Notes under the pieces: generated by a model
What the model was told of the DNA's origin: nothing
The model's input: the letters and a program-made list of their open reading frames with translations, nothing else
Databases searched by the model: none
Assembly: GCA_964361495.1 (NCBI GenBank)
Contig: CAYIAH010000001.1
Span: 1,057-65,056, forward strand
Source of the DNA: an uncultured Candidatus Saccharibacteria bacterium
Lineage (GTDB): Bacteria; Patescibacteriota; Minisyncoccia; Sungbacterales; HO2-52-23
DNA: 64,000 nt
Reading direction: 5' to 3'
In this document: in pieces, positions 13,709 through 60,462 of the stretch
Layout: each line of letters begins with the position of its first letter
Position numbering within the stretch: the first letter of the stretch is position 1
Program-made: the position numbers and the translations under genes

Positions 13709-13737
13709 AGTATGTTACATTTTATGCGCGGTTTTTA

Positions 13738-15132
13738 TTATCTTCCTTGCCTTTGCAGAATAGTCGCAACTGTTTTCAAAGCGATGAGAAGATCCAAAAC
13801 AAATGAACGATTTTTGATGTAGTAGATATCGTATTGCATTTTTTGGCGCGCGTCTTCAACAGACGCGTCATTTTTCATGTTGACCTGCGCCCAACCGGTG
13901 ATGCCGGGTGTGGCGAGAAGCCGCATCTCATAGAACGGTATTCTTTGTTTGAGTTCCTCTACATACTCCGGCCGTTCCGGCCGCGGCCCGATAAAAGACA
14001 TCTCGCCGCGGAAAATATTGATAATCTGCGGAAGTTCATCAAGATAGCTTTTGCGCAAAAACGTCCCGACCCGAGTACAACGCGGGTCGCCGCCGTCACC
14101 ATTGCTGTTATCTTTGAGCCCGCCAAAAGATTGCGCATTTTCCACCATGGAACGGAATTTGATAAGTTCAAAAACGCGGCCGTGCCGTCCAATCCTTTTC
14201 TGCCGAAAGAGTATTGCCCCCGGAGAATCGAATTTGATCGCGAACGCAATCATCGGAAACAGTAAAGCTCCGCCGACAAGAGTAATCGCGGCAAGCGTTA
14301 CGTCAAGAAGCCGCTTGAAGAATTCATACGGCGGCTTGCGGATGCCGATCAGGTTTTCAAGAAACCACATCTCCTCAATGAGCGACAGCGGAATCTTGCC
14401 GGTGAGCATTTCATGGAATGCCGGAAATTCCACGACCGCAATTCCCGCGGGAATCAATTGATAGAGCATATTCACAAGAGCGCGATCTTCTTTCGCGCCC
14501 CGCGATATAACGATGATGTCCGCGCCCATTTTTTTGATCTGCGGAGTCAAATTTTCCGCACCGAGTTCATAATGAGGAATTTCCGGGATAAGCGCGGGCG
14601 GGCGCGTCCCCGCGGATATGAGCGCCGCGGGGTGATGTGCGAGATGAGGATTTTGATAGAGATATCGCGCGAGCGCGATATGTTCTTTGTGTTCGCCGAC
14701 AAGGACGACACGGGATGAGAGCGCCGAGACGGTGATATACGCAAAGACATAACGCCAAAGAAAAATAAGACCCATCGCGAGACCCGCGGTGATGGCAAGA
14801 TTACGGCGCGGCTCGATCGTGAGAGGAAAAAGATAGAAGACAGCAACCGCAATCACGACGTTAATCGCCATGGTGCGGGCCAGCCGATAGAAAAATACTT
14901 TAAGACGCTTGAATGAACGCAGTTCATAAAACCCCGAAGCGCCAAAGGCGAGAAGCCAGAAAAGAAAAACGGGAGTAAACGCGGTAAGGTGCAGACGCGC
15001 GATTCTCGGGGTGGGCGCGACGCCGTGGTAACGGATAAAAAGCGTCCAAAAAAGCGCGGCATAGAAAAGTATCACGTCGCCGAATGCAAGAAGAAGCGTT
15101 TTTTTACTGAATTTTGTTTGCCAGCTGATCAT
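13738..15132 (-). CDS. Polyprenyl-phosphate sugar phosphotransferase (WbaP/bacterial sugar transferase family) with an N-terminal multi-TM domain
   Basis: C-terminal signature DELPQIINIFRGEMSFIGPRPERPEY and KPGITGWAQV. N-terminal 4-5 TM helices. Start placed at the internal ATG to limit overlap with the upstream GT gene; the ORF track gives 15198. Confidence 0.8.
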   Translation of the reverse strand: MISWQTKFSKKTLLLAFGDVILFYAALFWTLFIRYHGVAPTPRIARLHLTAFTPVFLFWLLAFGASGFYELRSFKRLKVFFYRLARTMAINVVIAVAVFYLFPLTIEPRRNLAITAGLAMGLIFLWRYVFAYITVSALSSRVVLVGEHKEHIALARYLYQNPHLAHHPAALISAGTRPPALIPEIPHYELGAENLTPQIKKMGADIIVISRGAKEDRALVNMLYQLIPAGIAVVEFPAFHEMLTGKIPLSLIEEMWFLENLIGIRKPPYEFFKRLLDVTLAAITLVGGALLFPMIAFAIKFDSPGAILFRQKRIGRHGRVFELIKFRSMVENAQSFGGLKDNSNGDGGDPRCTRVGTFLRKSYLDELPQIINIFRGEMSFIGPRPERPEYVEELKQRIPFYEMRLLATPGITGWAQVNMKNDASVEDARQKMQYDIYYIKNRSFVLDLLIALKTVATILQRQGR

Positions 15133-35069: not shown

Positions 35070-35810
35070 ATGCCGCATATCGAAATTGCCGCAGAGCGAC
35101 TCATTGAATTATTTGGAATGCCGATCACGAACACGCTCATTACGAGCTGGATCGTTGTCGGCTTCTTGGTGCTGTCGGCCGTTCTTTTTCAAAAGCGCGT
35201 CACGCGCGTCCCGAAGGGCGCGCAAAATATCGCAGAATTTTTTGTCGAGAAACTGCTCGGCCTCATGGAGGGGGTCATCGGATCGCGTGAAAAAGCAGAG
35301 CGCTATTTCCCGATTGTGGCAACTCTTTTTATTTTTATCCTCATATCCAACTGGTTTGGCATCTTTCCGGGGGTCGGCTCTTTGGGGCTCATCGAGGAAC
35401 ACGAGGGGCGCCCCGTGTTTGTGCCCCTTCTTCGTTCTGCGGCAAGCGATGTGAATACGACTTTGGCTCTCGCCGCGATCGCGGTCATCCTTATCAATCT
35501 CATGGGGATTGCAAGCGCGGGCGTGTGGCGATACGTGTCAAGATTTATCTCTTTCAAAGGCCCGATCGAGTTTTTTGTGGGCATACTTGAATTTATTTCG
35601 GAATTTGCTAAGATTATTTCATTCGCGTTCCGCCTGTTTGGCAACATATTTGCGGGAGAGGTATTGCTCGTGATTACCGCATTTCTTATTCCATACTTTG
35701 TGCCGATTCCATTTCTGATGCTTGAACTGTTTGTCGGGTTTATTCAGGCGCTTGTCTTCGCAATGCTCACCACCGTATTTATCAGCATTGCCACGGCGGA
35801 ACATCATTAA
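35070..35810 (+). CDS. atpB: F0F1 ATP synthase subunit a
   Basis: Five TM helices with the conserved FRLFGNIFAGE (essential Arg) and LFVGFIQALVFAMLT. Confidence 0.9.
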   Translation: MPHIEIAAERLIELFGMPITNTLITSWIVVGFLVLSAVLFQKRVTRVPKGAQNIAEFFVEKLLGLMEGVIGSREKAERYFPIVATLFIFILISNWFGIFPGVGSLGLIEEHEGRPVFVPLLRSAASDVNTTLALAAIAVILINLMGIASAGVWRYVSRFISFKGPIEFFVGILEFISEFAKIISFAFRLFGNIFAGEVLLVITAFLIPYFVPIPFLMLELFVGFIQALVFAMLTTVFISIATAEHH

Positions 35811-35853
35811 AATTCGTCGAATCCGCGTTATCCGTTTACTACACTATACTATT

Positions 35854-36081
35854 ATGGAGCAAGAAACCATAAAATTGCTTGCGACGGCCGGAGCGATCGT
35901 CGGCGGCACCACGGTGCCCGCGCTTGCCATTGCGCTTATCGGCAGCAAGGGATTGGAGGCGATCGGCCGGAATCCGGAAGCCGCGACGAAAGTGCAGACC
36001 GCAATGATTCTTGCGATCGCATTTGCCGAGGCAATCGCAATCTACGCCCTCGTGGTCGCGCTCATCATTAAATTCGTATAA
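35854..36081 (+). CDS. atpE: F0F1 ATP synthase subunit c
   Basis: 75-aa hairpin proteolipid. GLEAIGRNPEA loop. Conserved carboxylate in IAFAEAIAIYALV. Start moved to ATG 35854. Confidence 0.9.
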   Translation: MEQETIKLLATAGAIVGGTTVPALAIALIGSKGLEAIGRNPEAATKVQTAMILAIAFAEAIAIYALVVALIIKFV

Positions 36082-36109
36082 GCCCGTAGGCGTCTGACCG
36101 AACGGGACT

Positions 36110-36619
36110 TTGATGGCTGAATTCATCCGTCATTTTGGTATTGATTGGAAACTCTTCCTCGCGCAGGCAGTGAATTTTTTTATACTCCTTTTTGTCCTGA
36201 AAAAATTTGCCTACGGCCCCATTCTTGAACTCTTCAGAAAAAGACGCACCGAAATTCAAGAGGGGATTGCCATGCGGCGCGAAGCTGAAAAACATCTTCG
36301 GGAGGTTGATTCTGAAAAACAAAAAATTCTTTCAAACGCGGAACGCGAGGCCATATCTCTTATAGATCATGCCCGCGAGACCGCAAAAAAGCAGCACCAA
36401 GAAATCGTTGCAGAGGCGGGAGCGAAAGCCGAGAGTATCCGCGCCCAGACAAAACACGCAATTCTCCAAGAACGCGCAGCAATGACCGCCGCCCTTTATG
36501 ATGACGCAAAAGAGCTCGTGCGTCTCGGCGTTCAGCGCGTGCTTCAAAAAATTCCCGCGAAGAATCGTGATCAGATGCTCATTAAAGAGGCGCTCCGCGA
36601 ATTGGAGAAAACCGTATGA
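36110..36619 (+). CDS. atpF: F0F1 ATP synthase subunit b
   Basis: Single N-terminal TM, then a long charged helix. Position in the operon. Confidence 0.8.
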   Translation: MMAEFIRHFGIDWKLFLAQAVNFFILLFVLKKFAYGPILELFRKRRTEIQEGIAMRREAEKHLREVDSEKQKILSNAEREAISLIDHARETAKKQHQEIVAEAGAKAESIRAQTKHAILQERAAMTAALYDDAKELVRLGVQRVLQKIPAKNRDQMLIKEALRELEKTV

Positions 36620-36996
36620 AATATACCATCCGTCAGTATGCGGAGGCCCTGCGGTATTCTTTCCAAGATAAAACCGGCATGAAACGGCGCGCCGTTATAA
36701 AACGTTTTTTAGAGACGCTGCGGCATCATCAGAAAACCCATTGGCTCAAAGCAATTCTTCATGAAGCAGAAATGCAGGAGCGCGCGGCGCGCGGAATCAA
36801 AAAAATCATGATTATGTCCGCTTCGCCGCTGCCGAAGACCGTGCACAAAAAAATAGCTTCTCTTTTTTCAGGAAAGGCGCACATTGAAGAAAAAATCGCT
36901 CCCGAACTTTTTGCGGGCATTTCAATTTTTATTGATGAAGAGCTCCTTATTGACGCGAGCGCGCAAAACGCACTCCGACTGATGTTTAGGAAATAA
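36616..36996 (+). CDS. atpH: F0F1 ATP synthase subunit delta (OSCP), short form
   Basis: Operon position after atpF with a 4-nt overlap. 126 aa with the helical OSCP N-terminus. Sequence alone is weak evidence. Confidence 0.6.
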   Translation: MKYTIRQYAEALRYSFQDKTGMKRRAVIKRFLETLRHHQKTHWLKAILHEAEMQERAARGIKKIMIMSASPLPKTVHKKIASLFSGKAHIEEKIAPELFAGISIFIDEELLIDASAQNALRLMFRK

Positions 36997-37013: not shown

Positions 37014-37050
37014 ATCCGTCCCGATGGCTACCGAGACGGTTTTTTGTTTC
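37014..37050. terminator. Bidirectional terminator hairpin between convergent atpH (+) and the AAA ATPase gene (-)
   Basis: ATCCGTC...GACGGTT stem followed by TTTTTTGTTT on the plus strand, and preceded by AAAAAT (T-rich on the minus strand). Confidence 0.5.
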
Positions 37051-37062
37051 CATAACGAAACC

Positions 37063-38814
37063 TTAAACGGACTCACCGCTCAATTGTTTGAGTCGCATGA
37101 TTTGACGCATCAGCTCCTCGCGATCCCAAAAAAGTTGCTTACATATATCCGTGTCCGGTATGAGTCGCTCATCAGTGCATTCCATAAGTGCTACGAGAAT
37201 CTGGAGTTTTCGTTGCACAACGGGGTCTGCGGGATGAAAGACGCGCACCTCCTCAAGCAATATCTCTGGATTAAGTTTTTCCATGCCAGCTGAAGTTTTT
37301 GCTTCCTCAAGCTGTTCAATGAGAAGGTCAAAATCTGCCGGATAGTAGGATTCAGTGAGTTCAAGCACTTCCTTTTTTTGTTCACCTTCGATCGCAAGAG
37401 AAAAATGCTCTAACAGAACATGATCGACAAATGCCTCACGTTCTTCGGGGGTTTCTGGCGCAAATACTGGATAATGGCGTCCCGCCCTTCCGGAACGCTT
37501 TATATCCGACTCAAGCTTGTCCGGTCGCGCCGTAATCAAAATCCAGCAGACACGCCCTTTATTTCTTTTATCTTCCATCATGCGCAAAATCTTTCCAAAC
37601 AGCCGTTTATCAACTTCGTGTACCTCACGTCCACGCCCGCCCAGTTCCGTATCACCCTCGTCCACCATAATGATGACGCGGCCGATTGCTTCGATGATTT
37701 CTTCAATAATCTCCCAGATTCGTTCCGTCTCTCCGTACCACATGCTTCGAAGATTTTTGAGTCGCACCACATGCCAACCAGTCTCTTTTGCAAATGCTTT
37801 CATAATAAAGCTTTTGCCGCTGCCGTTTGGGCCCGGGACAAGAATACCGTGAGGAATTGCGGCTGTATTTCCTGATCGAAACAAAGCGGCGAGGCGCTTC
37901 AGATGCGCAACCAATCGTTTCTGGCCCACGATTCGTTGAAACCCGTAATCGGATTCAACAAATTCCACATAGCCGCCGATGGATTGTTCAAGGATCTCCC
38001 GTGCGCGTTCATGCGCGGCATCTCGAGTCAACGCCGGAGGATCACCCTTTTCGGTATCCGTGCGGAATGCCGCAGTGCGAAGAAATTGACGAATGTCGTA
38101 TAGCGTAAGACCAGCTGTTGCTTCAGTAAGCTCGTCTGTGCTCGCTGCGACGCCGCTCTTCAACATATCTTCTGTGTAATGAACAAGAAATACTTTTCTC
38201 AACGCCGCATCCGGCCGCGGAATCTTAATGGGCGTAATATGCGGCAGATTTTTTATTGCCGCATTCACGGCCTCAACGCTTTCACTGATCATGATCAGTG
38301 CATGACGCGAGTTGAGAAAATCTTCTGATGTGCACCACTTCTGAAGAAATTGAATGCACCGGCGATCATTTTCGGACAGGTGTGCTTCACTCTGTGCGGG
38401 CGCCACGGTGTTAATCTCACTCATGATGAAAACCAGTTTTCGGTCGTAAGAGGACTGCTGTATACGTGCAGTGATATCTTTTGCAAGTGTCAACATTGCA
38501 AAAACTGAAGTTGCGCTTTCCTTATAGAGCTTCTCAAAAACATCCTTCTGTCTCTTGAAAAGTTCACTCAAAAAGTTGAATGCAGTATGGGAATCAGGAT
38601 GCAGTATCGTAAGCCCGCTCGACAAATCAAGATGAAGAAGCATCCTATCCGGTGCCGCGCATTCTTGAACCAAAAGAGACACCAAAGGAACCCATCGTTC
38701 ATCAAGTGCGAAAAAAAGATCATGGACATTTCCGTGAAGCAAGAATATATTTCCTGCCCGTGCGCCGTAACTCAAATTCATCTTCTTAAGAAAGCTGGGT
38801 GCAGGTACTATCAT
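37063..38814 (-). CDS. Classical-clade AAA+ ATPase: a roughly 300-aa N-terminal degenerate AAA-like domain plus an active AAA domain
   Basis: Walker A GPNGSGKS, Walker B VIIMVDEGD, and the classical-AAA second region of homology ITARPDKLESDIKRSGRAGRH (compare TNRPDxLDxALLRPGRFDR). The N-terminal half has P-loop-like NIFLLHGNVHDLF and LVFIMSE but no intact Walker motifs. Confidence 0.8.
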   Translation of the reverse strand: MIVPAPSFLKKMNLSYGARAGNIFLLHGNVHDLFFALDERWVPLVSLLVQECAAPDRMLLHLDLSSGLTILHPDSHTAFNFLSELFKRQKDVFEKLYKESATSVFAMLTLAKDITARIQQSSYDRKLVFIMSEINTVAPAQSEAHLSENDRRCIQFLQKWCTSEDFLNSRHALIMISESVEAVNAAIKNLPHITPIKIPRPDAALRKVFLVHYTEDMLKSGVAASTDELTEATAGLTLYDIRQFLRTAAFRTDTEKGDPPALTRDAAHERAREILEQSIGGYVEFVESDYGFQRIVGQKRLVAHLKRLAALFRSGNTAAIPHGILVPGPNGSGKSFIMKAFAKETGWHVVRLKNLRSMWYGETERIWEIIEEIIEAIGRVIIMVDEGDTELGGRGREVHEVDKRLFGKILRMMEDKRNKGRVCWILITARPDKLESDIKRSGRAGRHYPVFAPETPEEREAFVDHVLLEHFSLAIEGEQKKEVLELTESYYPADFDLLIEQLEEAKTSAGMEKLNPEILLEEVRVFHPADPVVQRKLQILVALMECTDERLIPDTDICKQLFWDREELMRQIMRLKQLSGESV

Positions 38815-38857
38815 CCTATCCGCTCCTTTTCTGATTGTCCTCTCTTGTTTTGAAAAA

Positions 38858-38880
38858 GACCAGTCGTTTCCCGACTGGTC
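38858..38880 (-). terminator. Minus-strand rho-independent terminator (GACCAGTCG tttcc CGACTGGTC plus T-rich tail) after the 149-aa gene
   Basis: Perfect 9-bp stem, followed on the minus strand by TTTTTCAAAAC. Confidence 0.5.
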
Positions 38881-38889
38881 ATGCCCTGT

Positions 38890-39339
38890 TTAATCTTCGG
38901 TTTCAAACCAATAAACGAGACGCGGGACGCCTATCCCTGATTCACTGATCTTCGCCACTTCAGAAACTACTGTTTTGAATATGAGCGCGCATGCGCCAAC
39001 TGCTGTTGTCGCCGAACCCTCGACAAAGATAGCCGCGGACCATGCCATGAGTATATAGAGCTCCTCAAGTGTGAGCCATGAACTTGAGTAGCCGTCAGAA
39101 CTCCATGTCGCGCGTATCTCTCTTCCCCGCAAACTCAAATTCCTAGGGAGTCCACGCGGTGCAGATGGAAGGAATTTCGTCAGTGTGGAGCGACTTTTTT
39201 CTTCTTCATAGAAGCCGTGGAGACCAACAGTCACTGCGAGGAAATTAATCATTCCTGCCAGATCCACGCCCTTGTGATAGTGCGCAACGTTCCGCGTATC
39301 CTCGTACTCAATAAACCCTCGTACATGTGTGATCATCAT
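38890..39339 (-). CDS. Hypothetical protein (149 aa), translationally coupled to the upstream coiled-coil gene
   Basis: ORF track. Start overlaps the upstream stop at 39339. No recognisable motif. Confidence 0.4.
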   Translation of the reverse strand: MMITHVRGFIEYEDTRNVAHYHKGVDLAGMINFLAVTVGLHGFYEEEKSRSTLTKFLPSAPRGLPRNLSLRGREIRATWSSDGYSSSWLTLEELYILMAWSAAIFVEGSATTAVGACALIFKTVVSEVAKISESGIGVPRLVYWFETED

Positions 39340-40175
39340 TAGCTCCTTTTGGTGAGTGTTTCGGGCATCGTTGCCGAAGGCGGAACTGCCTCTTTCGCGG
39401 CACGACGTGCCGCAAGTTCTACCTTGAGTCGTTCTGCTGCGCTTCGTTCCCGTGCTTTACGATCGTATTTATCTACTGCGGGGCTTGTGGCGCCTGCGTA
39501 TTCTTCCACGACTTTTCCGCGTTCAACTTTCTCCTCAAGATATTTGTCAGCTTCCTGCTCCAGCGCATCCACGCTTGTTTCAGCGCTCAAGGAAAGATGG
39601 CTCATGCGGCTCGCGCGTTCCTCGCGAAGATGCGCCACGTCATGCCGAAGCGCGCCGAGTTGTTTCTCCATGTTGGTCTTCTGGATTCTGTCGGCGATTT
39701 CCGCGATATAGGGCGCGACTTGTTCAATCTCCTGCTGGAGCGCCGTGAGCTCTTCCTCGAGAAACGCTTGCTGGCTTTTGACCTGTGCGAGCTCCCGTTC
39801 GGTCCTGTCATACGCGCTCACTGCTTGGGAATACTCTTGAGTTCCTTCAGAGAGTTTTTCAAAATCCATCATGATCGTTTCTTTCCTCTGAATCAGGAGA
39901 TCCTCCTTGCCTTCGAGCGCGGCATGCTGACTTTGCAGCCGTTTCAATTCGGTGCGTTGAGCCGCGAGGGTATCGATGGCCGCTTTCTGCTGACCTTTCA
40001 ACTGTTCAATTTTTGCCTCCTTGATGTCAATGTATCCCTGTTTACTCTGAACCATCCGGCGCTCCCAGATCCGGAGAAATCCGGTCCAGCGAACCCATGC
40101 AGTGCCAAAAATTTGCGGCCGCGCAAGGGTCACGAGAAAGGCGACTCCAAAAACGATTCCCCCGACAATAAGCAT
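39339..40175 (-). CDS. Membrane-anchored coiled-coil protein; possible PspA/IM30/ESCRT-III-like
   Basis: One N-terminal TM (LIVGGIVFGVAFLVTLA), then about 240 aa of heptad-patterned, E/K/R/Q-rich helix. Size and composition fit PspA/Vipp1, but there is no direct motif proof. GGAGGG RBS 8 nt upstream. Confidence 0.4.
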   Translation of the reverse strand: MLIVGGIVFGVAFLVTLARPQIFGTAWVRWTGFLRIWERRMVQSKQGYIDIKEAKIEQLKGQQKAAIDTLAAQRTELKRLQSQHAALEGKEDLLIQRKETIMMDFEKLSEGTQEYSQAVSAYDRTERELAQVKSQQAFLEEELTALQQEIEQVAPYIAEIADRIQKTNMEKQLGALRHDVAHLREERASRMSHLSLSAETSVDALEQEADKYLEEKVERGKVVEEYAGATSPAVDKYDRKARERSAAERLKVELAARRAAKEAVPPSATMPETLTKRS

Positions 40176-40262
40176 GGCTTCTACCCTCCTTTTCAGCGAT
40201 TCGAATTGTTAACTGATATGCGGGTTGTCAACGTACCATTCCACGGGTAGCAGAAACCATTT

Positions 40263-40295
40263 ATCCTGTCAAGACCGTTCTATCCTTGACAGGAT
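40263..40295. promoter_or_regulatory. Perfect 11-bp inverted repeat ATCCTGTCAAG-N11-CTTGACAGGAT in a divergent promoter region; overlaps a -35-like TTGACA (40286-40291) with AATACT 17 bp downstream
   Basis: Read directly. Sits between the divergent starts at 40175 (-) and 40405 (+). Confidence 0.5.
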
Positions 40296-40404
40296 TTCCG
40301 TTATATGCAATACTTTTTTAAGAAAAAAATGATAGTCAGGGCTGCTCGGCGAGCTCTTTGATAACATACAAGTACTAATACGCAAACAGAAGAAAGGAGA
40401 TAAG

Positions 40405-41166
40405 ATGCCGCGGCTTTTGAGCTATAGTATGCTTCGGTATCGTCTTTTCGCAGGCCTCTGCGGCTATGTGTTCAATAAAGGAGTCGGAGGGCCGTTACTT
40501 GCCGTAGGAGTCATTGGCGCGGGAGTTGCGGGCGGAATTTTCGGTCTCGTCAGCATCAGCCTCCTTATCATCGCGATGTGTACAGGAGCGTTCTTGCTTA
40601 CAGTCATGGAGGCCTTAGGCAATCGGGAACTCTCTAAACAGCTCATCCGTGAATTTCTCGAAAGACGAATCTATCAATCAATGAAGATAGATACGAAACG
40701 AAGCAGTGCATATGCGGTGGAAATCATAATGAAAATTATGGACACCGCACGTGTACACGGAAAAGACATAGAACTCCTGCGAATGCTCACCGAGACGGAC
40801 CGCATGCTTTTATTGCAGACTCAATCAATCCGCCAAATTGAAGACCTGGAACGGATCATTGATCTTGTGGGAACCGCAAAGAAGAGGACACGCGATGACA
40901 GAACTGCGGCATTACGCAACGAAAACTTTGAACGAATCAAGAAGAGCATGGAAGAAATCACTATATCAGTGATGGAAATCGAAGGTGCTCTTGAAACGCT
41001 TCTTCTCCAAGTCGCGCAGATGGAGCAGAAGGCGAGCGATCTCGTCGAAAAAGAACAGCTCGCCCATGAAGCCCTGGAGACACTCAAAAGCCTTCAGGCG
41101 GTCGTGAATGCGCGGCACGAAACCGCGCAAGAATTGGTACGAACGTTCGTGCCTAACCGTGCCTGA
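40405..41166 (+). CDS. Membrane protein (two N-terminal TM helices) with a cytoplasmic coiled-coil domain
   Basis: Gly/Ala/Val-rich TM hairpin, then about 170 aa of charged helical sequence. AAAGGAG RBS. Confidence 0.45.
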   Translation: MPRLLSYSMLRYRLFAGLCGYVFNKGVGGPLLAVGVIGAGVAGGIFGLVSISLLIIAMCTGAFLLTVMEALGNRELSKQLIREFLERRIYQSMKIDTKRSSAYAVEIIMKIMDTARVHGKDIELLRMLTETDRMLLLQTQSIRQIEDLERIIDLVGTAKKRTRDDRTAALRNENFERIKKSMEEITISVMEIEGALETLLLQVAQMEQKASDLVEKEQLAHEALETLKSLQAVVNARHETAQELVRTFVPNRA

Positions 41167-41197
41167 CAAGAAGAAACAAGAAAGGAGAAAACTTCAA

Positions 41198-43027
41198 ATG
41201 GAAGGAAGACATTGGCTTTGGATCAGCGTGGTCTTCGTCGTCGTGATTATCGCGGTCATGACTGCTCGATCATTGGTCTCCACGAATCAACAGCAGCAGG
41301 CGCCGACAAGTAGCAATGGGGCCAGTGTTACAGAGACGAAACCCCAGAGTTCTATCGCAACGCCATCACCGCGTCCGGGGTCGGTAAAACCCATCACGAT
41401 CTCCATCGCAAGTTCCAATACCAAACAGGATTGGCTCCGCGAAGCAGTGGAGAAATTTAATACTGCATCGATGAGCGAGACGCGTCTTCAAGTAAACGGA
41501 GTCCCGATCAATGTTGAAGTTCTTAAGGAAATAATCGACGGGAAACCAGTGGACTATCGTTCTGGTACCATGGTGTCCGACACCATCAAAGGCAAGATTA
41601 AACCTACCATCCTGTCTCCGGGCGAAGAATCGTGGTTGGAGAAATTTAAAAAGGATTGGCAGATCACCCACGGTTCGTCAGCGCTTCGCGGAGACGCGCC
41701 GGTGCTGGTGCGCACGCCCCTCGCTGTTGCAATGTGGCAATCACGGGCAAAAGCGCTTGGATGCTGGCCTGAAGCGAATCCGGAATGCACATGGGGAAAG
41801 ATTAGGGCGCTCGCAGAACACCCTGATGGCTGGAAATCCCTCGGGAGGCCCGAGTGGGGAAAATTCAAATTCGGCTATGGATACTTCGGAGAGTCCAACT
41901 CCGGAACGCTCGGCATCATCTCGATGTGTATGGCGGGCGTCAAGAAAACAAAAGGCCTTGCGTTGAACGATGTCGATCCCAAGAACGGCTGCGGCGCATT
42001 TATCGCGGGGATCGAGAGAGGCAAGGTCCATTCTGGAAAATCGGATGTGTGGCTTCTCGAACGCATGCGACACGGGGGGCCTGAATACCTCGACGCGGTG
42101 ATTACGTATGAGTCAAACGTAATCCTGATGAATAGAAAATACGGACAGGAATTACGAGAGTCGCTTGTAGCCGCATATCCGCAGGATGGAACGGTCGTCG
42201 TTGGACATCCGTTCGGTGTACTCGGTAATGCGCCGTGGGTCACGCCGGATCAGAGCACAGCCGCAGGGATTTTCAGAGAATTCCTTCTCGCCCATGAGCA
42301 GCAAGAATTGGTGCTCAACGTAGGCCTGCGCCCCGCAGACCCAAAAGTAAAGCTCGGCGCGCCAATTGAACACAGCATGGGTGCGAATCCAAATGCACGA
42401 CTCAATATACTTGAAGTTCCGGATACGCTCGTTATTGAGCGAATCTCGGAGGTATGGCATACCAATAAAAAGAAATCAGTGATCGCGCTTCCATTCGACA
42501 AATCAGGCAGCATGGCAGGGAAAAAAATTGCCGCCGCGATCAAGGGCGCCCAAGAATTTGTGCGCTCAATGGATTCCGAGGACACGCTCATATGGATTCC
42601 CTTTGACAACAACATCTATACGGGAAAAGCGCGGGGAACGAAAGCCGCGATCGGGGAGTCGCTCGTGGAAGAAATTGGTGCGACCGGTGCAGGCGGAGGC
42701 ACGTCGCTCTACGATGCAGTATTTGCCTCAATGGAAGAACTCGAGGCGCTCCGGAAAAAATATCAGGATACGGTTCGGTATGGGATTGTCGTTCTCTCTG
42801 ACGGGGAGGACACCACAAGTTCCCGAAAGCTCACGCAGCTTGAAGAAAAACTCAAACCTGCGGAACACGATCCGCGGGGCGTGCAGATTCACACGATCTG
42901 CATTGGAACTGACTGTAACGAGTTCGTGCTTAAAAAAATCGCTGCCGTGGCCCATGGAAAATTCCTAAAGGGCAATAGCGCAGAAGACATGATACGGGTA
43001 TACAAAGACATCGCGGCTCATTACTAA
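41198..43027 (+). CDS. Membrane-anchored protein with a periplasmic-binding-protein-like region and a C-terminal von Willebrand factor A domain
   Basis: Signal anchor WLWISVVFVVVIIAVM. vWA MIDAS motif DKSGSMAG ... TSLYDA ... LSDGEDT. Start moved to ATG 41198 with an AAAGGAG RBS. Confidence 0.7.
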   Translation: MEGRHWLWISVVFVVVIIAVMTARSLVSTNQQQQAPTSSNGASVTETKPQSSIATPSPRPGSVKPITISIASSNTKQDWLREAVEKFNTASMSETRLQVNGVPINVEVLKEIIDGKPVDYRSGTMVSDTIKGKIKPTILSPGEESWLEKFKKDWQITHGSSALRGDAPVLVRTPLAVAMWQSRAKALGCWPEANPECTWGKIRALAEHPDGWKSLGRPEWGKFKFGYGYFGESNSGTLGIISMCMAGVKKTKGLALNDVDPKNGCGAFIAGIERGKVHSGKSDVWLLERMRHGGPEYLDAVITYESNVILMNRKYGQELRESLVAAYPQDGTVVVGHPFGVLGNAPWVTPDQSTAAGIFREFLLAHEQQELVLNVGLRPADPKVKLGAPIEHSMGANPNARLNILEVPDTLVIERISEVWHTNKKKSVIALPFDKSGSMAGKKIAAAIKGAQEFVRSMDSEDTLIWIPFDNNIYTGKARGTKAAIGESLVEEIGATGAGGGTSLYDAVFASMEELEALRKKYQDTVRYGIVVLSDGEDTTSSRKLTQLEEKLKPAEHDPRGVQIHTICIGTDCNEFVLKKIAAVAHGKFLKGNSAEDMIRVYKDIAAHY

Positions 43028-43047
43028 CAAGATCGAACAGGCATAGG

Positions 43048-43080
43048 AAGTCCGAGGAGACAATCTTCGGACTTTTTTAA
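43048..43080 (+). terminator. Rho-independent terminator (AAGTCCGAGG...CTTCGGACTT plus TTTTTT) after the vWA gene
   Basis: 8-9 bp GC-containing stem followed by a T6 run. Confidence 0.6.
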
Positions 43081-43156: not shown

Positions 43157-44707
43157 ATGAAAAAGGATTTTATTATCGAACAACTGCGTAAAGAAATTGA
43201 GGGGGCGCGGGTTGAGATTAAAGCAGAAAAAATAGGTCGGGTGCTTGAGGTGGGCGACGGGATTGCGCGGATTTCCGGATTGTCCGGAGTCGGCTCGCAA
43301 GAAATGCTTGAATTTGAAACCGGCGAGGAGACGAGCGCGGGTATCGCGTTTAATCTCGAAGAGGATAGCGTGGGCGCAATAATCCTTACGGCACAGGAGC
43401 GCATCCGCGAGAACACGCTCGTCCGCCCCACCGGACGCGTGCTTTCCATACGGGCTGGAGAAGAGCTTCTCGGACGTATCATTGATGTTCTCGGAGGGCC
43501 GCTCGACGACGCCGGGCCCATATTCACCGACGAGACAAGCGGATCCTGGTATCCCGTCGAGCGGCGCGCGCCGCCGGTTACGGCACGCGAACCCGTCAAC
43601 GTTCCGCTTCATACCGGCATCATGGCAATTGACAGCATGATTCCCATAGGCCGGGGCCAGCGCGAACTTATCATCGGCGACCGCCAAACCGGAAAAACAT
43701 CTCTCGTTATTGACACCATCATCAATCAGGGACGCGACACGGGGCGCCCGACGCCCGTGTGCATTTACGTCGCCATCGGCCAAAAGCAATCAAAAGTCGC
43801 GAAACTTATTGCGACCCTCAAAGAGGCAGATGCAATGCGATACACCATTGTAATCTCTGCGTCCGCATCAACTTCGGCATCGCGCTGGTATCTTGCTCCG
43901 TATAGCGGCGCGGCAATCGGCGAATATTTTATGGATCAGGGAAGAGACGCGCTCGTCATTTATGACGATCTTTCCAAACATGCATGGGCATATCGCGAGT
44001 TGTCGCTGCTCCTTCGCCGGCCGCCGGGCCGGGAAGCATATCCGGGCGATATTTTCTATCTTCACTCGCGACTGCTTGAGCGCGCCTCAAAGCTCAATAA
44101 AGAAGCGGGGGGCGGGTCGCTCACCGCACTCCCGATTGTGGAGACGCAACTCGGCGATGTCTCCGCATACATTCCAACCAACATTATTTCAATCACCGAC
44201 GGACAGATTTATCTCGAACCCGAACTTTTTTATCAGGGCGTGCGGCCTGCGGTCAACGTCGGTCTTTCGGTATCACGCGTCGGGTCTGCCGCGCAGACGA
44301 AAGCAATGAAAAAAGTGGCGGGACGACTGCGGCTTGAACTCGCGCAATTCCGTGAACTTGCCGCATTCGTGCAGTTTGCGTCTGAACTTGACGAGGGTAC
44401 GCGCCGCCGGATTGAACGCGGCCGCATACTCACCGAACTTTTGAAACAAAGCGAGCGAGCGCCCATTCCGTTTGAAGAGCAGGCAGTCCTTATTTTTGCC
44501 GCGACACAAGGATATTTTGACGACATTCCCGCAGGCAGCATGGGTATACTCGCCGCGTCCCTCCGACAATATCTCAATAAATTGCATCGCGAGACCGTGC
44601 TTAATCCGATCAGAAAATCCGGCGATCTTTCTGATGCGGCAGAGCGACAGCTGCGCGCCGCGCTTGAAACCTTCAAAAAACTTTCTATGGAGATTCCTCC
44701 AAGTTAA
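43157..44707 (+). CDS. atpA: F0F1 ATP synthase subunit alpha
   Basis: P-loop [15 protein letters not shown]-equivalent region. Highly conserved throughout. Confidence 0.95.
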
Positions 44708-44711
44708 AAAT

Positions 44712-45653
44712 ATGGCGTCACGAAAATCAATTATGCGGCGCATCAAGTCGATCAAAAGCACATCGCAGATTACCAAAGCGATGGAAGTGGTTTCCGCAAC
44801 TAAAATGCGCCGCTCCCAAGAGTTTGCTCTTCACGCGCGCCCATATGCGAAAGCGGCGCTTGAACTGCTCCGGAATCTCTTGCAGCGCACGCCCGATCAC
44901 CTTCTTCCTCCGGTCTTAAAGCCGCGTGAGATCAAGCGGTTTTCGCTTCTCGTCATCACTTCTGACAAAGGACTTGCGGGAGCATTCAACGCCAATGTCC
45001 TGCGTAAAGCAACGCAGTGGCTCTCCGGACAATCTATAGACATCGCAAAACCATATATTATCACCGTGGGGAAAAAGGCGAAAGAATATTTCCAGCGCCG
45101 CGGGGAATCGGTTGCCGAAAGCTTCTGGGGATACGGCGACTATACGACCTTAGCCGAGACCGCCGGAATCGCCGACACAGTTATCAAAGGATTTCTGGAC
45201 CGCTCTTGGGATGAGGCGTATGCGGTCTATACCAATTTCCGCACCACGCTTCTTCAGGAAGCCGTTATAAAAAAAATTCTGCCGGCGACGCCCACAGGAC
45301 TGCAAGAAGCGGTCCAAAGCATTCTGCCCGAACGAGGACGCTTTGCAGAATCTCAAGCTCCGAATTCCGGTCTCCGGGCTCCCGCCTATCAGTATGAATA
45401 CAAATTTGAACCCTCAAGCGCAGAAATTCTTGATGCGCTTGTCCCCGAATTAATCAGGATGCATATTCATCATATCATTCTTGAGTCCAATGCGTCGGAG
45501 CACTCCGCACGAATGGTTGCCATGAAAAATGCGTCGGATAATGCACGGGAATTGATTTCAAAGCTCGCGATTGAATACAATAAACTCCGTCAGGCGGGGA
45601 TCACCAGAGAACTCGCGGAAATCACCGCGGGAAAAGAAGCGCTTGAGGAATAA
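44712..45653 (+). CDS. atpG: F0F1 ATP synthase subunit gamma
   Basis: N-terminal IKSIKSTSQITKAMEVVSATKMRRSQE and the C-terminal helix. Start moved from the track's 44472 to ATG 44712. Confidence 0.85.
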   Translation: MASRKSIMRRIKSIKSTSQITKAMEVVSATKMRRSQEFALHARPYAKAALELLRNLLQRTPDHLLPPVLKPREIKRFSLLVITSDKGLAGAFNANVLRKATQWLSGQSIDIAKPYIITVGKKAKEYFQRRGESVAESFWGYGDYTTLAETAGIADTVIKGFLDRSWDEAYAVYTNFRTTLLQEAVIKKILPATPTGLQEAVQSILPERGRFAESQAPNSGLRAPAYQYEYKFEPSSAEILDALVPELIRMHIHHIILESNASEHSARMVAMKNASDNARELISKLAIEYNKLRQAGITRELAEITAGKEALEE

Positions 45654-47030
<1,377 letters not shown>

Positions 47031-47054
47031 GGGATCATTTAATTAATAATCTTT

Positions 47055-48707
47055 ATGACCACACGATACATTTTTGTATGCGGCGGCGTCATTTCGGGTG
47101 TTGGAAAGGGGACTGCAACTGCCTCAATGGCCGCACTCCTCAAATCACGCGGGTTTCGAGCCACCGCAATCAAAATTGACCAGTATCTCAACGTTGACGC
47201 CGGAACCATCAGGCCGACCGAACACGGGGAGGTGTTTGTGACCGATGATGGAATGGAATGCGATCAGGACCTTGGCATTTACGAACGATTCCTTCATCAA
47301 GACATCGGCGGCACGAACTACATGACGACCGGCTCGGTCTATCTTACGGTCATTCAAAAAGAAAGAAATCTTGAGTATGACGGAGAAGACGTCGAGGTGA
47401 TCCCTCACATTCCGCAGGAAGTGATCCGGCGGATTAAAAACGTTGCGGAACAGAGCCGCGCCGATTTTGTATTCATTGAAATCGGCGGCACGGTCGGCGA
47501 ATATCAAAATCTCGTATTCCTTGAGGCGGCACGTATGATGCATCTTGAGGCGCCCGCCAACGTTTTTTTTGTACTCGTCTCATACGTGCCGGTGCCGCCC
47601 ATGATCGGGGAAATGAAAACGAAACCGACCCAGCAGGCGGCGAGGTTTCTCAACGAAGCGGGAATACAGGCGGATATTATTCTTGCGCGATCCGAGGTTC
47701 CGCTTGATGCCAAACGCAAAGAGAAAATCTCGCTTTTCTCCAATATTCCCAAAAACCAGGTCATTTCCGCTCCCGACGTCAAATCGGTCTATGAGGTGAT
47801 CCTCAATTTTGAAAAAGAAGGACTCACGGATACCCTTCTTGCGCTCGCGCACGAAACGCCGCAAAAACGGGATTTGGGCAAATGGAAGAAACTTGTCGCC
47901 GTCATCCGGACCGTTTCTTCGCCGGTCAAAATTGGGATAGTCGGCAAATATTTCCAAACCGGCGATTTCACTCTTTCCGATTCATATATCTCCGTAATCG
48001 AGGCAATAAAACATGCCGCATGGGCGCATCATAGAAAGCCGGAAATTCACTGGCTCAATGCCGAGACGTATGAACAAAATTCTAAACAACTGAAGGAGCT
48101 TGACGGTTATGACGGCATTATCGTGCCGGGCGGCTTCGGTCCGCGCGGCGTCGAAGGAAAAATCCTTGCGATTCAATATGCGCGGGAACACGCGATTCCT
48201 TATTTCGGACTCTGTTATGGAATGCAGCTCGCCGTGATTGAATTTGCGCGCACAGTCTGCGGTCTTAAAAATGCCCATACCACGGAGGTCAACCCCGATA
48301 CGCCCCATCCGGTCATCACGCCCATGGAGGAACAGCAGCAGTTGCTCGAAGAAAAACACTACGGCGGGTCAATGCGGCTTGGGGCGTACGAGTGCGCCCT
48401 GATCCCCGCGACCGCGAGCTTTCGCGCTTATGCGAACACACGCGCGAGAAAAATCGCAAAAAAAATGACGGTGAGTGAACGCCACCGTCATCGCTACGAA
48501 TTAAATAATGCGTATCGCGCCCGCCTCGAGGAAAAAGGGCTCGTCATTGCCGGCATCAATCCGCAAAGAAATCTTGTCGAGATCATTGAACTCCCTCGTC
48601 ATCCGTTCTTTGTCGGGACGCAGTTCCACCCCGAATTCAAATCAAGGCCGCTTTTCCCCCACCCGCTCTATATGGAATTCATACGCGCCGCAGGACGGAA
48701 AAATTAA
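47055..48707 (+). CDS. pyrG: CTP synthase
   Basis: N-terminal synthetase domain (IFVCGGVISGVGKG). C-terminal GATase with catalytic GLCYGMQ. Confidence 0.92.
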   Translation: MTTRYIFVCGGVISGVGKGTATASMAALLKSRGFRATAIKIDQYLNVDAGTIRPTEHGEVFVTDDGMECDQDLGIYERFLHQDIGGTNYMTTGSVYLTVIQKERNLEYDGEDVEVIPHIPQEVIRRIKNVAEQSRADFVFIEIGGTVGEYQNLVFLEAARMMHLEAPANVFFVLVSYVPVPPMIGEMKTKPTQQAARFLNEAGIQADIILARSEVPLDAKRKEKISLFSNIPKNQVISAPDVKSVYEVILNFEKEGLTDTLLALAHETPQKRDLGKWKKLVAVIRTVSSPVKIGIVGKYFQTGDFTLSDSYISVIEAIKHAAWAHHRKPEIHWLNAETYEQNSKQLKELDGYDGIIVPGGFGPRGVEGKILAIQYAREHAIPYFGLCYGMQLAVIEFARTVCGLKNAHTTEVNPDTPHPVITPMEEQQQLLEEKHYGGSMRLGAYECALIPATASFRAYANTRARKIAKKMTVSERHRHRYELNNAYRARLEEKGLVIAGINPQRNLVEIIELPRHPFFVGTQFHPEFKSRPLFPHPLYMEFIRAAGRKN

Positions 48708-58154: not shown

Positions 58155-58211
58155 AGAACCCATCTCAAAATTCCATTTCGCCTCCGATACGCGATTTTTG
58201 AGATGGGTTCT
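58155..58211. repeat. Copy 3 of the roughly 58-nt intergenic hairpin repeat family (best-preserved 17-bp stem)
   Basis: AGAACCCATCTCAAAAT ... ATTTTTGAGATGGGTTCT. A short GC hairpin CTCGCGagaCGCGAG lies immediately 5' (58142-58156). Confidence 0.55.
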
Positions 58212-60462
58212 ACTCTCTTTCGAGCATTTTAATAAATTGATCTCCTTCTTGTTTGAAGGCGGGGTCAAGACGCCCGGCTTCAGCGGCCTCTGCCCGCGCC
58301 TCTTTCGTCCTTCCGAAATGCGCAAGATGCGCCGCGTAAATCGCGCGATATTGCGGGTTTTTCGGACTCATCTTGACGAGCAGCTCAAAATATTTAATTG
58401 AGGACGCATAGTCCTTGGCGCGCTGGTATGCAGTCGCAATCTTTGCAAGATCCGCCTCGTCAAGATCGGTGACGGGGATATACTTTTGTATCTCTTCAAT
58501 AATCTCCGGTTTTTTCGCGAACGCCGCAACAGTCCAAAGCCCTGCGGCAGCGAGCTTATAACGCGGTTCAACCCGCCATGCTTTCTCAAGCGCCTGAACC
58601 GCGCGATCAGTATTGCCGAGCATCAAATAATGCTGCGCCAACTCAAAATAAATAAGCTGTTTCCGGGGGCTGAGACGCGCCGCCTCAAGAAGCATTTTCT
58701 CCGCATCCGGCGCATATTTCGTATCAAGCGTCAACGCCTGATTATACAAAGAACCGAGAAGAAGGAGATGTTTGACGTCTCGCGCCGGTCGTTCAATTTC
58801 TTTTAGAATTTCGGGGGTCGCAAATTCCACGAACCGTGCGCGCTCTTCGGGCGTGTACTTTGTATCACTCGCTATTTGGCGCGTCACGTTCCCAAGCTGT
58901 TCATGCGCTTCAGTATCGCCAAAACTTCGATACGATAAGGTCTCTTCAAATGCGGCCCTCAAGTCCGGAAGCGATCTTTGAAATTGATAAAAATTAAGTG
59001 TTTTGATAAGTGACCGCGCTTCACGGATCGGTTTGAGATGAAGCCAATATCCTCCGACTGCGACTGCCGCCACGAGCGCAACGCTCACCGCATACGCTTG
59101 CATGGAAACATCAAAAGAACGCCCTCCGGACTTCACTTCATCATGACGCGCTGCCTCGCGAGAATCCTCCATAAGAAAACTTCCGTAGGCGAGCACTGCA
59201 AAAAAGAGAAGATAGGTATTCAGATTGTCAAATACAAAAAGATTCTGAAGGAAATATGTTGCGGTAAGTCCAAGAAACATGAATCCCTCAAAAAGGAGCG
59301 CGCCTCGGCGCCGTATGTGCCGGATAATCTGCCAGCAAAAAATTCCGAATATCGCAAGATAACTGAGAATCCCCGGAATTCCCGCATGAATAAACCAGTC
59401 GAGGAACACATTGTGCGAGCGGTCAAACCATGGCTCCGCGCCATAGAGTTTCGGATGAAAGTATTTTTGAAAAACAAGATAATAATTTTCCTGCCCCCAG
59501 CCGAAGACCGGCCGCTCCAAGCCCCCCCGAAGCGACATGCCCCAAATTTTGAAACGATCCTGAATCGTGCCCTCGCTCAGTGAATAGTTCGTGAGCCGGC
59601 GGAGCGCCTGGCTTGACTGCACAAAATCGCTTTTACGCGCAATCCAAAAGATCAACGGTATCACCACGACCGCCGCAAGCATCCCTGCGGCATATTTTCT
59701 TCCCATGCCCCAAGGGGCCTTGCGATCCTTTCCGTGCGCCCGATCCCAAAAGAAGAGCAACGCGCCGACGCATAACGGAACTACCGCAACAAGCGCCACC
59801 ACAACTCCGCGCGTTGCCGTAAAGTAAATAATCAGGGATTCAAAAACAAGAAGCGCCGCATACAGCGATACACGCCACCATTTCTTCCAAAACTGATACA
59901 TCATTATCACCAACAACCACACATGAAAAAGAAGATACGCCGCCAAGTATGTCGGATTGCCGATTGTTGAATCCACCCTGAATCCTCCCTGCAATGAAAC
60001 CCGATAGCCCAATTTCTGAAGAAGCGCGAAATACGAGACAACCGCGCTCGCCGCAAACGACACATGAAGAAACGTGAGCCAGTCGCGCCTCGTCTTGAAC
60101 ACGCTCGTGAGCATCAGAAAATAAAGATAGAGATGCGAGAGCATCATGAATCCTTCCATCCGCTCATAATTTGAGAAGAAGGAGCGATACGGATTCGAAC
60201 TCACGAGGTCCGCGAAAAAAACAATCCCCACAAAAATTGAGACCGCTTTGAGAAGCGGCGTGAACTTCGGCCGATACTCGCGCCTCGCGATCGCAAGTCC
60301 GACCCACAACGCAAAAATAACCTCAACAAGAATCCGGAATGTAAAATTCTTCCCGGTAATAAAGGGGAAGAGCATGGTATTCGCAACGTACAGCGGCAAA
60401 ATCGGAATCACCCAAAGCCCGATTTTGATGATCCAGAGAAATATTTTCTCTAAAAACGACAT
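58210..60462 (-). CDS. O-antigen ligase (Wzy_C)-family polytopic membrane protein with a C-terminal TPR-repeat domain
   Basis: About 12 TM helices in the N-terminal 420 aa. C-terminal TPR-like helical repeats (LGNTDRAVQALEKAWRVEP ... YRAIYAAHLAHFGRTKEA). Confidence 0.65.
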   Translation of the reverse strand: MSFLEKIFLWIIKIGLWVIPILPLYVANTMLFPFITGKNFTFRILVEVIFALWVGLAIARREYRPKFTPLLKAVSIFVGIVFFADLVSSNPYRSFFSNYERMEGFMMLSHLYLYFLMLTSVFKTRRDWLTFLHVSFAASAVVSYFALLQKLGYRVSLQGGFRVDSTIGNPTYLAAYLLFHVWLLVIMMYQFWKKWWRVSLYAALLVFESLIIYFTATRGVVVALVAVVPLCVGALLFFWDRAHGKDRKAPWGMGRKYAAGMLAAVVVIPLIFWIARKSDFVQSSQALRRLTNYSLSEGTIQDRFKIWGMSLRGGLERPVFGWGQENYYLVFQKYFHPKLYGAEPWFDRSHNVFLDWFIHAGIPGILSYLAIFGIFCWQIIRHIRRRGALLFEGFMFLGLTATYFLQNLFVFDNLNTYLLFFAVLAYGSFLMEDSREAARHDEVKSGGRSFDVSMQAYAVSVALVAAVAVGGYWLHLKPIREARSLIKTLNFYQFQRSLPDLRAAFEETLSYRSFGDTEAHEQLGNVTRQIASDTKYTPEERARFVEFATPEILKEIERPARDVKHLLLLGSLYNQALTLDTKYAPDAEKMLLEAARLSPRKQLIYFELAQHYLMLGNTDRAVQALEKAWRVEPRYKLAAAGLWTVAAFAKKPEIIEEIQKYIPVTDLDEADLAKIATAYQRAKDYASSIKYFELLVKMSPKNPQYRAIYAAHLAHFGRTKEARAEAAEAGRLDPAFKQEGDQFIKMLERE

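Follow-up and report, generated by a model that had tools for sequence, protein, structure and literature searches.

What do five genes that are not part of ATP synthase encode when they lie between two halves of an ATP synthase gene set, and do they constitute a system of their own? The question is raised by a stretch of 64,000 nucleotides, referred to here as the window, from contig CAYIAH010000001.1 of an uncultured Candidatus Saccharibacteria bacterium. An open reading frame (ORF) map and Pfam searches agree with an earlier note on this DNA, both in placing the module between atpBEFH, which end at position 36996, and atpAGD, which restart at 43157, and in finding all five ORFs where that note had put them (Table 1). 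The region is probably a rare variant of the bacterial membrane-maintenance or remodelling system in which PspA accompanies a tandem classical AAA+ ATPase; the identities of the proteins within this model can be assigned with considerable confidence.

A tandem classical-clade AAA+ ATPase

The 583-aa product contains a Pfam AAA domain (PF00004, E 1e-22) in its C-terminal half. Its best solved relatives in the PDB are VAT, Cdc48, p97, AFG2 and NSF, and the top NCBIfam models are CDC48 first and CdvC second, the latter covering the AAA core alone with 51 bits against a cut-off of 650. No match to AAA_3 or AAA_5, which would indicate the MoxR clade, was found for this protein, and the previously proposed assignment to the classical clade therefore holds.

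The C-terminal copy of the domain has the Walker A motif GPNGSGKS (residues 328-335), a Walker B motif with D385-E386, a pore loop 1 reading MWYGE (M358-W359-Y360-G361-E362), which we take to resemble the 'MWFGESE' of p97 D2, and a second region of homology, TARPDKLESDIKRSGR, that includes R440 and R443. Across 31 homologues Walker A, pore loop 1, Walker B and both arginines are invariant or nearly so, G361 being invariant and T363 and E364 nearly invariant in the family. Because these catalytic and pore-loop motifs have been kept, the C-terminal copy has the appearance of an active unfoldase that threads its substrates. The same AAA domain recurs in degenerate form over the N-terminal 285 residues (hhalign of the N-terminal against the C-terminal half: probability 94.4, E 9e-8), with FLLHGNVHD (residues 24-32) where the P-loop belongs and FIMSE instead of Walker B. 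As this degenerate copy occupies the N-terminal region and no MIT domain is present in the 583 residues, the ATPase has two AAA domains and does not have the Vps4-like architecture that had been suggested for it.

A probable divergent, membrane-anchored PspA-family protein

Upstream of the ATPase gene, and separated from it by a 149-aa ORF, lies the gene for a 278-aa protein, in which an N-terminal hydrophobic helix (about residues 2-18) is followed by an alpha0-like amphipathic segment and then by a long helical hairpin (45-107 and 113-226). The start that gives 278 residues is favoured over the public gene call of 238 residues because the N-terminal hydrophobic segment is kept in seven relatives. 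An AlphaFold2 (AF2) model has predicted local distance difference test (pLDDT) values above 90 for residues 50-170 of the hairpin. Scans of Pfam, NCBIfam and PADLOC with the 278-aa, 253-aa and 149-aa proteins of the module returned coiled-coil noise only, and word-indexed homologue searches retrieved two proteins for the 278-aa and two for the 253-aa protein.

A relationship to PspA emerges from the comparison of sequence profiles. When the alignment of this family, which comprises eight sequences, was compared using hhalign with the PspA-like proteins encoded at the ATPase loci of Poribacteria and Thermodesulfobacteriota, a probability of 96.7 (E 4.5e-10) was obtained over 237 columns; against a merged PspA profile the probability was 95.4 (E 1.9e-8) over 231 columns, with the alignment beginning at helix alpha0. 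As the reversed alignment and 20 block-shuffled versions all gave 9.2% probability or less, and other helical families from the same ATPase loci gave less than 3% against the 278-aa family, the match is not compositional. By way of scale, the same comparison made between two bona fide PspA families yields no more than 61%. Furthermore, a hidden Markov model (HMM) of the 278-aa family matched only one of the 6217 six-frame ORFs of 80 loci encoding homologous ATPases (E 4.4e-6, over nearly the full length). This was the 248-aa protein of locus L006, which scores 36.2 bits with Pfam PspA_IM30 (threshold 33.9) and is encoded directly upstream of the ATPase that, in a scan of species genomes, is closest to that of the window. 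When 1.84 billion representatives were searched exhaustively using HMMER with the profile of the 278-aa family, six of its members were recovered and nothing that would link them to canonical PspA. Judged by its profile similarity, the 278-aa protein is probably a divergent member of the PspA family with an added N-terminal membrane anchor; the PspA-like character proposed in the earlier note is thus supported, by means of a comparison that reveals what Pfam and fold searches do not.

In all eight members of the family a variable Pro/Ala linker leads to a terminal L-[TS]-K (window 39339-39350), and the PspA proteins linked to the same ATPase family elsewhere (those of L003, L006 and Acidobacteriota) have E-K-[ST]-[LI]-G near their C-terminus. 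The L-[TS]-K tail is a candidate recognition handle for the ATPase.

Neighbourhoods of the ATPase family

A protein search returned some 50 full-length homologues of the ATPase, and the scan of a species-genome collection, holding one genome per species, gave at least 596 matches confirmed by tblastn, all of them 37% identical or less to the window protein. The hosts include Acidobacteriota, Spirochaetota, Poribacteria, Coatesbacteria, Thermodesulfobacteriota and Gemmatimonadota, among others. The ORFs of the 80 loci were clustered and then re-scored by HMMs, counts being taken from those 64 whose upstream sequence measures 2.5 kb or more. A PspA gene is found upstream on the same strand at 42 of the 64, making PspA the commonest conserved neighbour of the ATPase family; a helical protein of about 290 aa with a transmembrane (TM) anchor is encoded immediately upstream at 41, both genes are present at 38, and a PBP-OmpA protein with ABC transporter genes is found as well at 25. 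The recurrent gene order is PspA, PBP-OmpA, permease, ABC ATPase, TM-helical protein, ATPase. Most of the non-spirochaete genomes sampled have the ATPase gene beside both a PspA gene and one for a TM-anchored helical protein; neither of these is present at 19 loci, nearly all from Spirochaetota (L020, L025, L026, L037, L040, L042, L046, L055, L060, L069, L072, L077-L080, L082 and L085).

Two further observations were made on these loci. In the long operons PspA is itself preceded by a conserved protein, belonging to family F6 in Acidobacteriota (about 232 aa; L065, L047 and others) and to F18 in Poribacteria (288 aa; L003 2725-3591); these two families are weakly related (hhalign probability 82.7) and have no counterpart in the window. 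A search of 2.9 million viral contigs gave one match to the ATPase, on a 186 kb IMG/VR contig (L104 7896-9730), which carries an entire PspA, PBP-OmpA, TM-helical, AAA operon of chromosomal type. Two overlapping ORFs encode the L104 ATPase, the break between them falling precisely where the inactive domain meets the active one; a frameshift, an error in sequencing or a gene that is naturally split might each account for it.

Close relatives and the conserved unit

The co-occurrence of the module's genes was examined in five close relatives of the locus. At L101 the PspA-like gene is followed by the AAA+ gene, divergently from a gene for a protein with two TM helices (2-TM protein) that is followed by one for a vWA protein. 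At L103 the PspA-like and AAA+ genes are immediate neighbours, in that order; at L088 a gene for an 802-aa TPM-domain protein stands between them; and at L001 the PspA-like gene is followed by a DUF350 gene, genes for 288-aa and 229-aa proteins and the AAA+ gene, again divergent from a 2-TM and vWA pair. At L091 a transposase gene is followed by the AAA+ and vWA genes, which are convergent. The adjacency of PspA-like and ATPase genes is thus kept at L001, L088, L101 and L103, although the slot between them is variable, holding DUF350, TPM or an orphan ORF. Orthologues of the 2-TM protein adjoin the PspA-like gene divergently at L001 and L101, and orthologues of the vWA protein, which is also similar to solute-binding proteins (SBP-vWA protein), are found at L001, L101 and L091.

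The conserved unit is four genes, encoding the PspA-like, AAA+, 2-TM and SBP-vWA proteins. It is a four-gene rather than a five-gene unit because the 149-aa ORF is absent from the relatives. The idea that five genes travel together therefore stands in part, in that four of them do so in a few close relatives, while the fifth is lineage-specific.

Two of these loci have additional features. The gene right upstream of the ATPase at L091 (65-1339) encodes a 424-aa integrase/transposase-like protein and occupies the usual slot of the PspA-like gene. L001 encodes next to its module, at 12005-14660, a second, single-domain classical AAA+ protein (508 aa) on the opposite strand and two small membrane proteins (143-158 aa).

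Remaining genes of the module

The 2-TM protein consists of an N-terminal membrane hairpin and a helical domain predicted to be cytoplasmic, as is its N-terminus. It has no significant match in Pfam or the PDB, PDB searches having given unrelated helical proteins. In architecture, a TM hairpin with about 180 helical residues, it resembles the 'TM + divergent Snf7' partner encoded by homologous systems; Pfam Snf7 matches neither this protein nor the members scanned of F2 and F19, the TM-helical partner families. The AF2 model is poor (pLDDT 54.8), and the Foldseek matches obtained with it, including one to CdvB at a root-mean-square deviation of 29 Å, were dismissed as meaningless.

The SBP-vWA protein carries a signal anchor and is predicted to be extracytoplasmic. 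Its gene most likely starts at 41198 rather than 41108, since the former start is the one called on an identical public contig and its exact product is present in the protein collection. The C-terminal vWA domain (Pfam VWA, PF00092, 24.5 bits against a cut-off of 23.8) has an intact MIDAS motif, DKSGSM, which is kept in L001; the match to SBP_bac_8 is weak, and 8s05 is matched in the PDB (E 2e-6). Comparison using hhalign detected no homology with the PBP-OmpA family of the long operons, to which the SBP-vWA protein may be analogous in its extracytoplasmic role.

The 149-aa ORF overlaps the stop codon of the PspA-like gene by one base at its start. No homologues of it were found beyond identical copies of the contig, and it is absent from L101 and L103. 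Its codon-usage correlation with the housekeeping genes of the window (0.51, against 0.71-0.91) is the lowest of the genes tested. A gene of recent origin and a spacer without coding function are both conceivable, and the ORF may lie outside the conserved system. An equivalence with the 229-aa gene in the same position at L001 was considered and rejected, as the two are unrelated on comparison.

Terminators and promoters

Terminator hairpins at both boundaries of the module, together with the internal one, were identified by scanning and by folding z-scores, in accordance with the earlier note; all three carry a T-run after the stem and fold far better than shuffled sequences. Only 43 nt, including an AAGGAG ribosome-binding site, separate the internal hairpin from the start codon of the AAA+ gene, which makes it likely that read-through is attenuated there; this would give much PspA-like protein and little ATPase. 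In relatives a terminator is likewise found directly 3' of the PspA-like gene, and the ATPase gene of L101 has its own promoter with a perfect consensus.

The perfect 11-bp inverted repeat previously noticed in the divergent intergenic region is present and holds TTGACA on both strands. TGTCAA-N-TTGACA is found in the equivalent region of L001 (5959-6012) and L101 (about 2113-2136) as well, and the repeat is read as the -35 boxes of two divergent promoters set back to back. Its reading as an operator was demoted, as the relatives keep the paired TTGACA boxes and not the full repeat; an operator overlapping the paired boxes is possible. Among the three related loci (window 40266-40291) the spacers between the back-to-back TGTCAA and TTGACA boxes range from 10 to 38 nt.

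Table 1. Features of the module and its flanks (positions in the window)
Feature	Position	Strand	Basis and remarks
atpB, atpE (35854-36081), atpF, atpH; left flank, outside module	35070..36996	+	Pfam ATP-synt_A, ATP-synt_C, ATP-synt_B, OSCP
Bidirectional terminator hairpin, atpH (+)/AAA+ (-)	37016..37039	both	A-run upstream, T-run downstream; folding z -2.75 (+), -4.1 (-)
Tandem classical-clade AAA+ ATPase, 583 aa	37063..38814	-	Pfam, NCBIfam, PDB best matches, hhalign
Internal terminator or attenuator hairpin	38858..38880	-	Terminator scan; folding z -4.95
Orphan ORF, 149 aa	38890..39339	-	No Pfam, NCBIfam or PADLOC match
Predicted membrane-anchored divergent PspA-family (ESCRT-III superfamily) protein, 278 aa	39339..40175	-	hhalign, family HMM, AF2
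Perfect 11-bp inverted repeat, ATCCTGTCAAG / CTTGACAGGAT	40263-40273 and 40285-40295		Divergent intergenic region, 11-nt spacer
Candidate sigma-70-like promoter of 2-TM/vWA pair	40286..40314	+	TTGACA, 17 nt, AATACT, TG before -10; 10/12 matches, consensus match alone
2-TM protein, 253 aa	40405..41166	+	Membrane hairpin of two helices at the N-terminal end (about 30-68), followed by a helical, cytoplasmic domain (about 180 aa)
SBP-like/vWA protein, 609 aa from 41198 (639 aa from 41108)	41198..43027	+	Pfam VWA, PDB 8s05
Terminator hairpin closing 2-TM/vWA pair	43045..43080	+	-19.6 kcal/mol, z -4.5; 77 nt before atpA
atpA, atpG (about 44712-45653), atpD; right flank, outside module	43157..47030	+	Pfam

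Proposed mechanism and its main alternatives

In the mechanism favoured here, the PspA-like protein would polymerise in the manner of ESCRT-III on the cytoplasmic side of the membrane. The AAA+ hexamer would thread PspA-like subunits, disassembling or recycling the polymer, perhaps by taking hold of the conserved L-[TS]-K at the C-terminus, an action functionally akin to that of Vps4 on ESCRT-III. The terminator between the PspA-like gene (with the 149-aa ORF) and the AAA+ gene would hold the ATPase sub-stoichiometric, while the 2-TM and extracytoplasmic SBP-vWA proteins would couple the polymer machinery to an envelope signal or attachment site, replacing the PBP-OmpA and ABC transporter components of the longer operons. 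This remodelling of the PspA-like polymer by the ATPase is an inference, and turnover of a PspA-type polymer by the tandem AAA+ protein has about an even chance of being what takes place.

Several observations weigh against this account. Pfam PspA_IM30 matches none of the eight family members, even at E 10; the PspA HMM does not match the 278-aa protein directly; sequence and profile searches of the PDB with its family yield generic or designed coiled coils only; and the AF2 model of the protein was built from two sequences. The 253-aa family gives 5% probability or less against the TM-helical partner families F2 and F19 in hhalign, also when aligned globally. The close clade amounts to about six sequence clusters among the 1.84 billion representatives, mostly on short contigs, and literature searches turned up no experiments on any member of this system, nor on a bacterial PspA paired with a classical AAA+ protein. 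Because the ATPase has no MIT domain, its recognition of substrate would have to differ from that of Vps4, and because about 19 mostly spirochaete loci have no PspA neighbour, PspA need not be its sole substrate.

A bolder version of the same mechanism would make the module a true bacterial counterpart of ESCRT-III and Vps4, with an anchored PspA-type polymer, a Cdc48-derived tandem unfoldase reading its tail and a 2-TM link to an SBP-vWA sensor or adhesin. This is doubtful; if true, the machine might serve ATP-driven membrane scission or repair, for instance in division, vesicle release or host attachment, in groundwater bacteria that are probably ultra-small.

It is unlikely, on the whole, that the ATPase is a general chaperone or extractase of membrane proteins, Cdc48-like or like an FtsH without protease, with the 2-TM or SBP-vWA protein as its client and the 278-aa protein as a coiled-coil scaffold or adaptor rather than a remodelling polymer. 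The AAA domain is indeed closest to Cdc48, VAT and AFG2, which are general unfoldases; the spirochaete members of the family have no PspA neighbours; and fold searches cannot separate the 278-aa protein from other helical hairpins. Such a scaffold would not be expected to match PspA profiles over about 235 columns in a manner that depends on sequence order, however, nor the ATPase family to have PspA as its commonest conserved neighbour, and the vWA and solute-binding domains are predicted to lie outside the membrane, apart from a cytoplasmic ATPase. At L091 the vWA gene is still linked to that of the ATPase and the PspA-like gene is missing, which speaks for this alternative, but the locus looks disrupted, since a transposase is found where the PspA-like gene would be. 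Polymer turnover by the tandem AAA+ protein is preferred over chaperone activity.

Position within the atp genes

An identical stretch including atpBEFH is present on a public contig from Hainich groundwater (0.1-µm filter fraction), and identical contigs with the module inside the atp genes come from two groundwater samples. The flanking genes have some peculiarities of their own: AtpH (36616-36996) is 126 aa long and matches positions 63-167 only of the 172 in the OSCP profile, its N-terminal part thus appearing to be missing; no atpC was found by Pfam among the flanking genes after atpD in the window, and pyrG begins 24 bp past atpD (47030-47055). Among the relatives, the sole one with enough flanking sequence (L001, whose module is 52% identical) has no atp gene within 10 kb, and none of the 80 distant homologous loci has an atp context; on these grounds the placement of the module inside the atp genes looks lineage-specific.

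PspA is linked to the maintenance of proton-motive force. A functional tie to ATP synthase, through assembly or quality control of the enzyme or protection of the coupling membrane, would explain the position between atpH and atpA and could draw on this link, on the repeated occurrence of the position in the two groundwater samples, and on the unusual flanking enzyme with its truncated AtpH and no atpC after atpD. It is nevertheless improbable: the location is not seen in L001, which has the whole module, leaving the tie unsupported, the distant loci are never beside atp genes, and the module is cut off from the atp genes by a terminator at either end. It is plausible that atpAGD require a promoter of their own; a weak candidate, TTGCGC-17-TATAGT, can be seen by eye, and the promoter scan gave nothing passing for these genes. 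The split of the atp set is best regarded as a curiosity that bears on the transcription of atpAGD in this organism, with no functional link to the module indicated.

The GC content of the module and that at third codon positions (GC3) lie inside the range of the flanking genes, and its correlation with the housekeeping genes in codon usage falls near the bottom of theirs, giving no clear compositional or codon-usage signal of recent transfer. No mobility genes are found in the window. A plasmid search gave distant homologues only, none of them close. No full-length match to a PADLOC defence system was obtained for any component, the partial matches being to TRIP13 over the AAA core (E 9e-7) and to JetC/LmuB-type coiled coils (E about 1e-3 or weaker). 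The least probable explanation, that a mobile or defence island such as an abortive-infection system of ATPase, coiled coil and vWA protein landed in the atp genes, would account for the varying context among relatives with the atp location in the window lineage only, the adjacent transposase at L091, the bounding terminators and these weak PADLOC matches, but the matches are limited to generic AAA or coiled-coil regions, composition, plasmid searches and the gene content of the window lend it no help, the single viral match is a whole chromosomal-type operon, and homologous systems at the 80 loci keep company with PspA and transporter genes, not with defence genes.

Elsewhere in the window are genes for a 750-aa O-antigen-ligase (Wzy_C) protein with fused TPR repeats (58210-60462) and a 7TM-type histidine kinase (1368-3005).

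Comparison with known systems

The module shares with the MoxR AAA+/vWA pairs the presence of AAA+ and vWA genes in one neighbourhood. The analogy with AAA-plus-vWA functional units drawn in the earlier note is not sustained, as it concerns pairs of the MoxR type, whereas the ATPase here is of the classical clade; a direct chaperone-client relation of the MoxR kind is unlikely because the vWA protein has a signal anchor and is predicted to lie outside the cytoplasm.

Canonical Psp systems (PspF-PspABC of Gammaproteobacteria) also associate a PspA-family effector with an AAA+ protein. PspF, however, is an NtrC-type enhancer-binding transcription factor that is inhibited by PspA, whereas the window ATPase is a classical-clade tandem unfoldase by its motifs and has no DNA-binding domain; nor are PspB and PspC present. 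There is some similarity to PspA neighbourhoods of the E. coli yjfIJKLMC type and the TPM type, in that relatives insert a DUF350 gene (L001) or a TPM protein gene (L088) between the PspA-like and AAA+ genes. The resemblance does not extend to a CesT/Tir-like YjfI or to polyamine genes, and the window itself has neither DUF350 nor TPM. DUF350 (the YjfL family) and TPM are both listed as partners of PspA (Popp et al. 2024, PMC11237479).

As in the ESCRT-III/Vps4 (CdvB/CdvC) systems, an ESCRT-III-superfamily gene is found beside one for a classical-clade AAA+ protein with an aromatic pore loop and arginine fingers. The window ATPase differs in having no MIT domain, in having two AAA domains, the N-terminal one dead, rather than one, and in an AAA core nearer to Cdc48/VAT than to Vps4; there is no winged-helix partner of the ESCRT-II type, and within the superfamily the partner protein belongs with PspA rather than with Snf7. 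Haloarchaeal 'Halo_adaptin' loci, where the gene for a weakly PspA-like protein precedes that for a Vps4-like ATPase with a VAT/Cdc48-type N-domain (Makarova et al. 2024, PMC10936438), are similar in that a Cdc48-flavoured ATPase without an MIT domain is encoded directly downstream of a weakly PspA-like protein, the likeness being drawn from their description. These loci are archaeal, however, the N-domain is a double-psi barrel and not a dead AAA domain, and they have winged-helix partners.

The closest likeness is to operons that have already been catalogued computationally, in which PspA occurs with an 'inactive AAA + classical AAA' protein in the order PspA > PBPB-OmpA > permease > ABC > TM-Snf7 > AAA, examples being those of Candidatus Handelsmanbacteria (OGG56892.1) and Clostridium (AEY64320/21) (Popp et al. 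2024, mSystems, PMC11237479). The proposal that the module is an undescribed system cannot be retained in that form, since such operons are published, with products that include a solute-binding protein and a divergent, TM-anchored Snf7. The gene order of the Poribacteria locus L003 is exactly that listed for Candidatus Handelsmanbacteria, and the window ATPase is 35% identical to the poribacterial homologue over 99% coverage; given this shared order, we infer that the window ATPase belongs to the same family as the published one, which would make it a member of a family whose association with PspA has been reported, computationally only. Reviews state that bacteria have no Vps4-like ATPase partner for PspA. 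The occurrence of this ATPase family in at least 596 species genomes and its usual adjacency to PspA make it the obvious candidate for an ATP-driven remodeller of PspA.

In common with the published operons, the window has an ATPase of this two-domain build (35-38% identical to members from Poribacteria, Coatesbacteria and Thermodesulfobacteriota), a PspA-family gene upstream of it, and nearby genes for a TM-hairpin helical protein and an extracytoplasmic protein of solute-binding type. It differs in that its PspA-like protein is so divergent as to have no Pfam match and carries its own N-terminal membrane anchor; in that the ABC transporter, permease and OmpA domain are replaced by an SBP-like/vWA fusion; and in that the TM-helical gene is divergently transcribed, its product giving no significant hhalign match to the 'TM+Snf7' family. 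The association of PspA with a tandem AAA+ protein is hence already in the literature, while the variant in the window is new: a minimal set of four genes with a self-anchored, very divergent PspA, whose conserved C-terminal tail provides a concrete hypothesis for recognition, and with an SBP-vWA protein in place of PBP-OmpA and the transporter, a divergent layout of two operons and an odd location among the atp genes.

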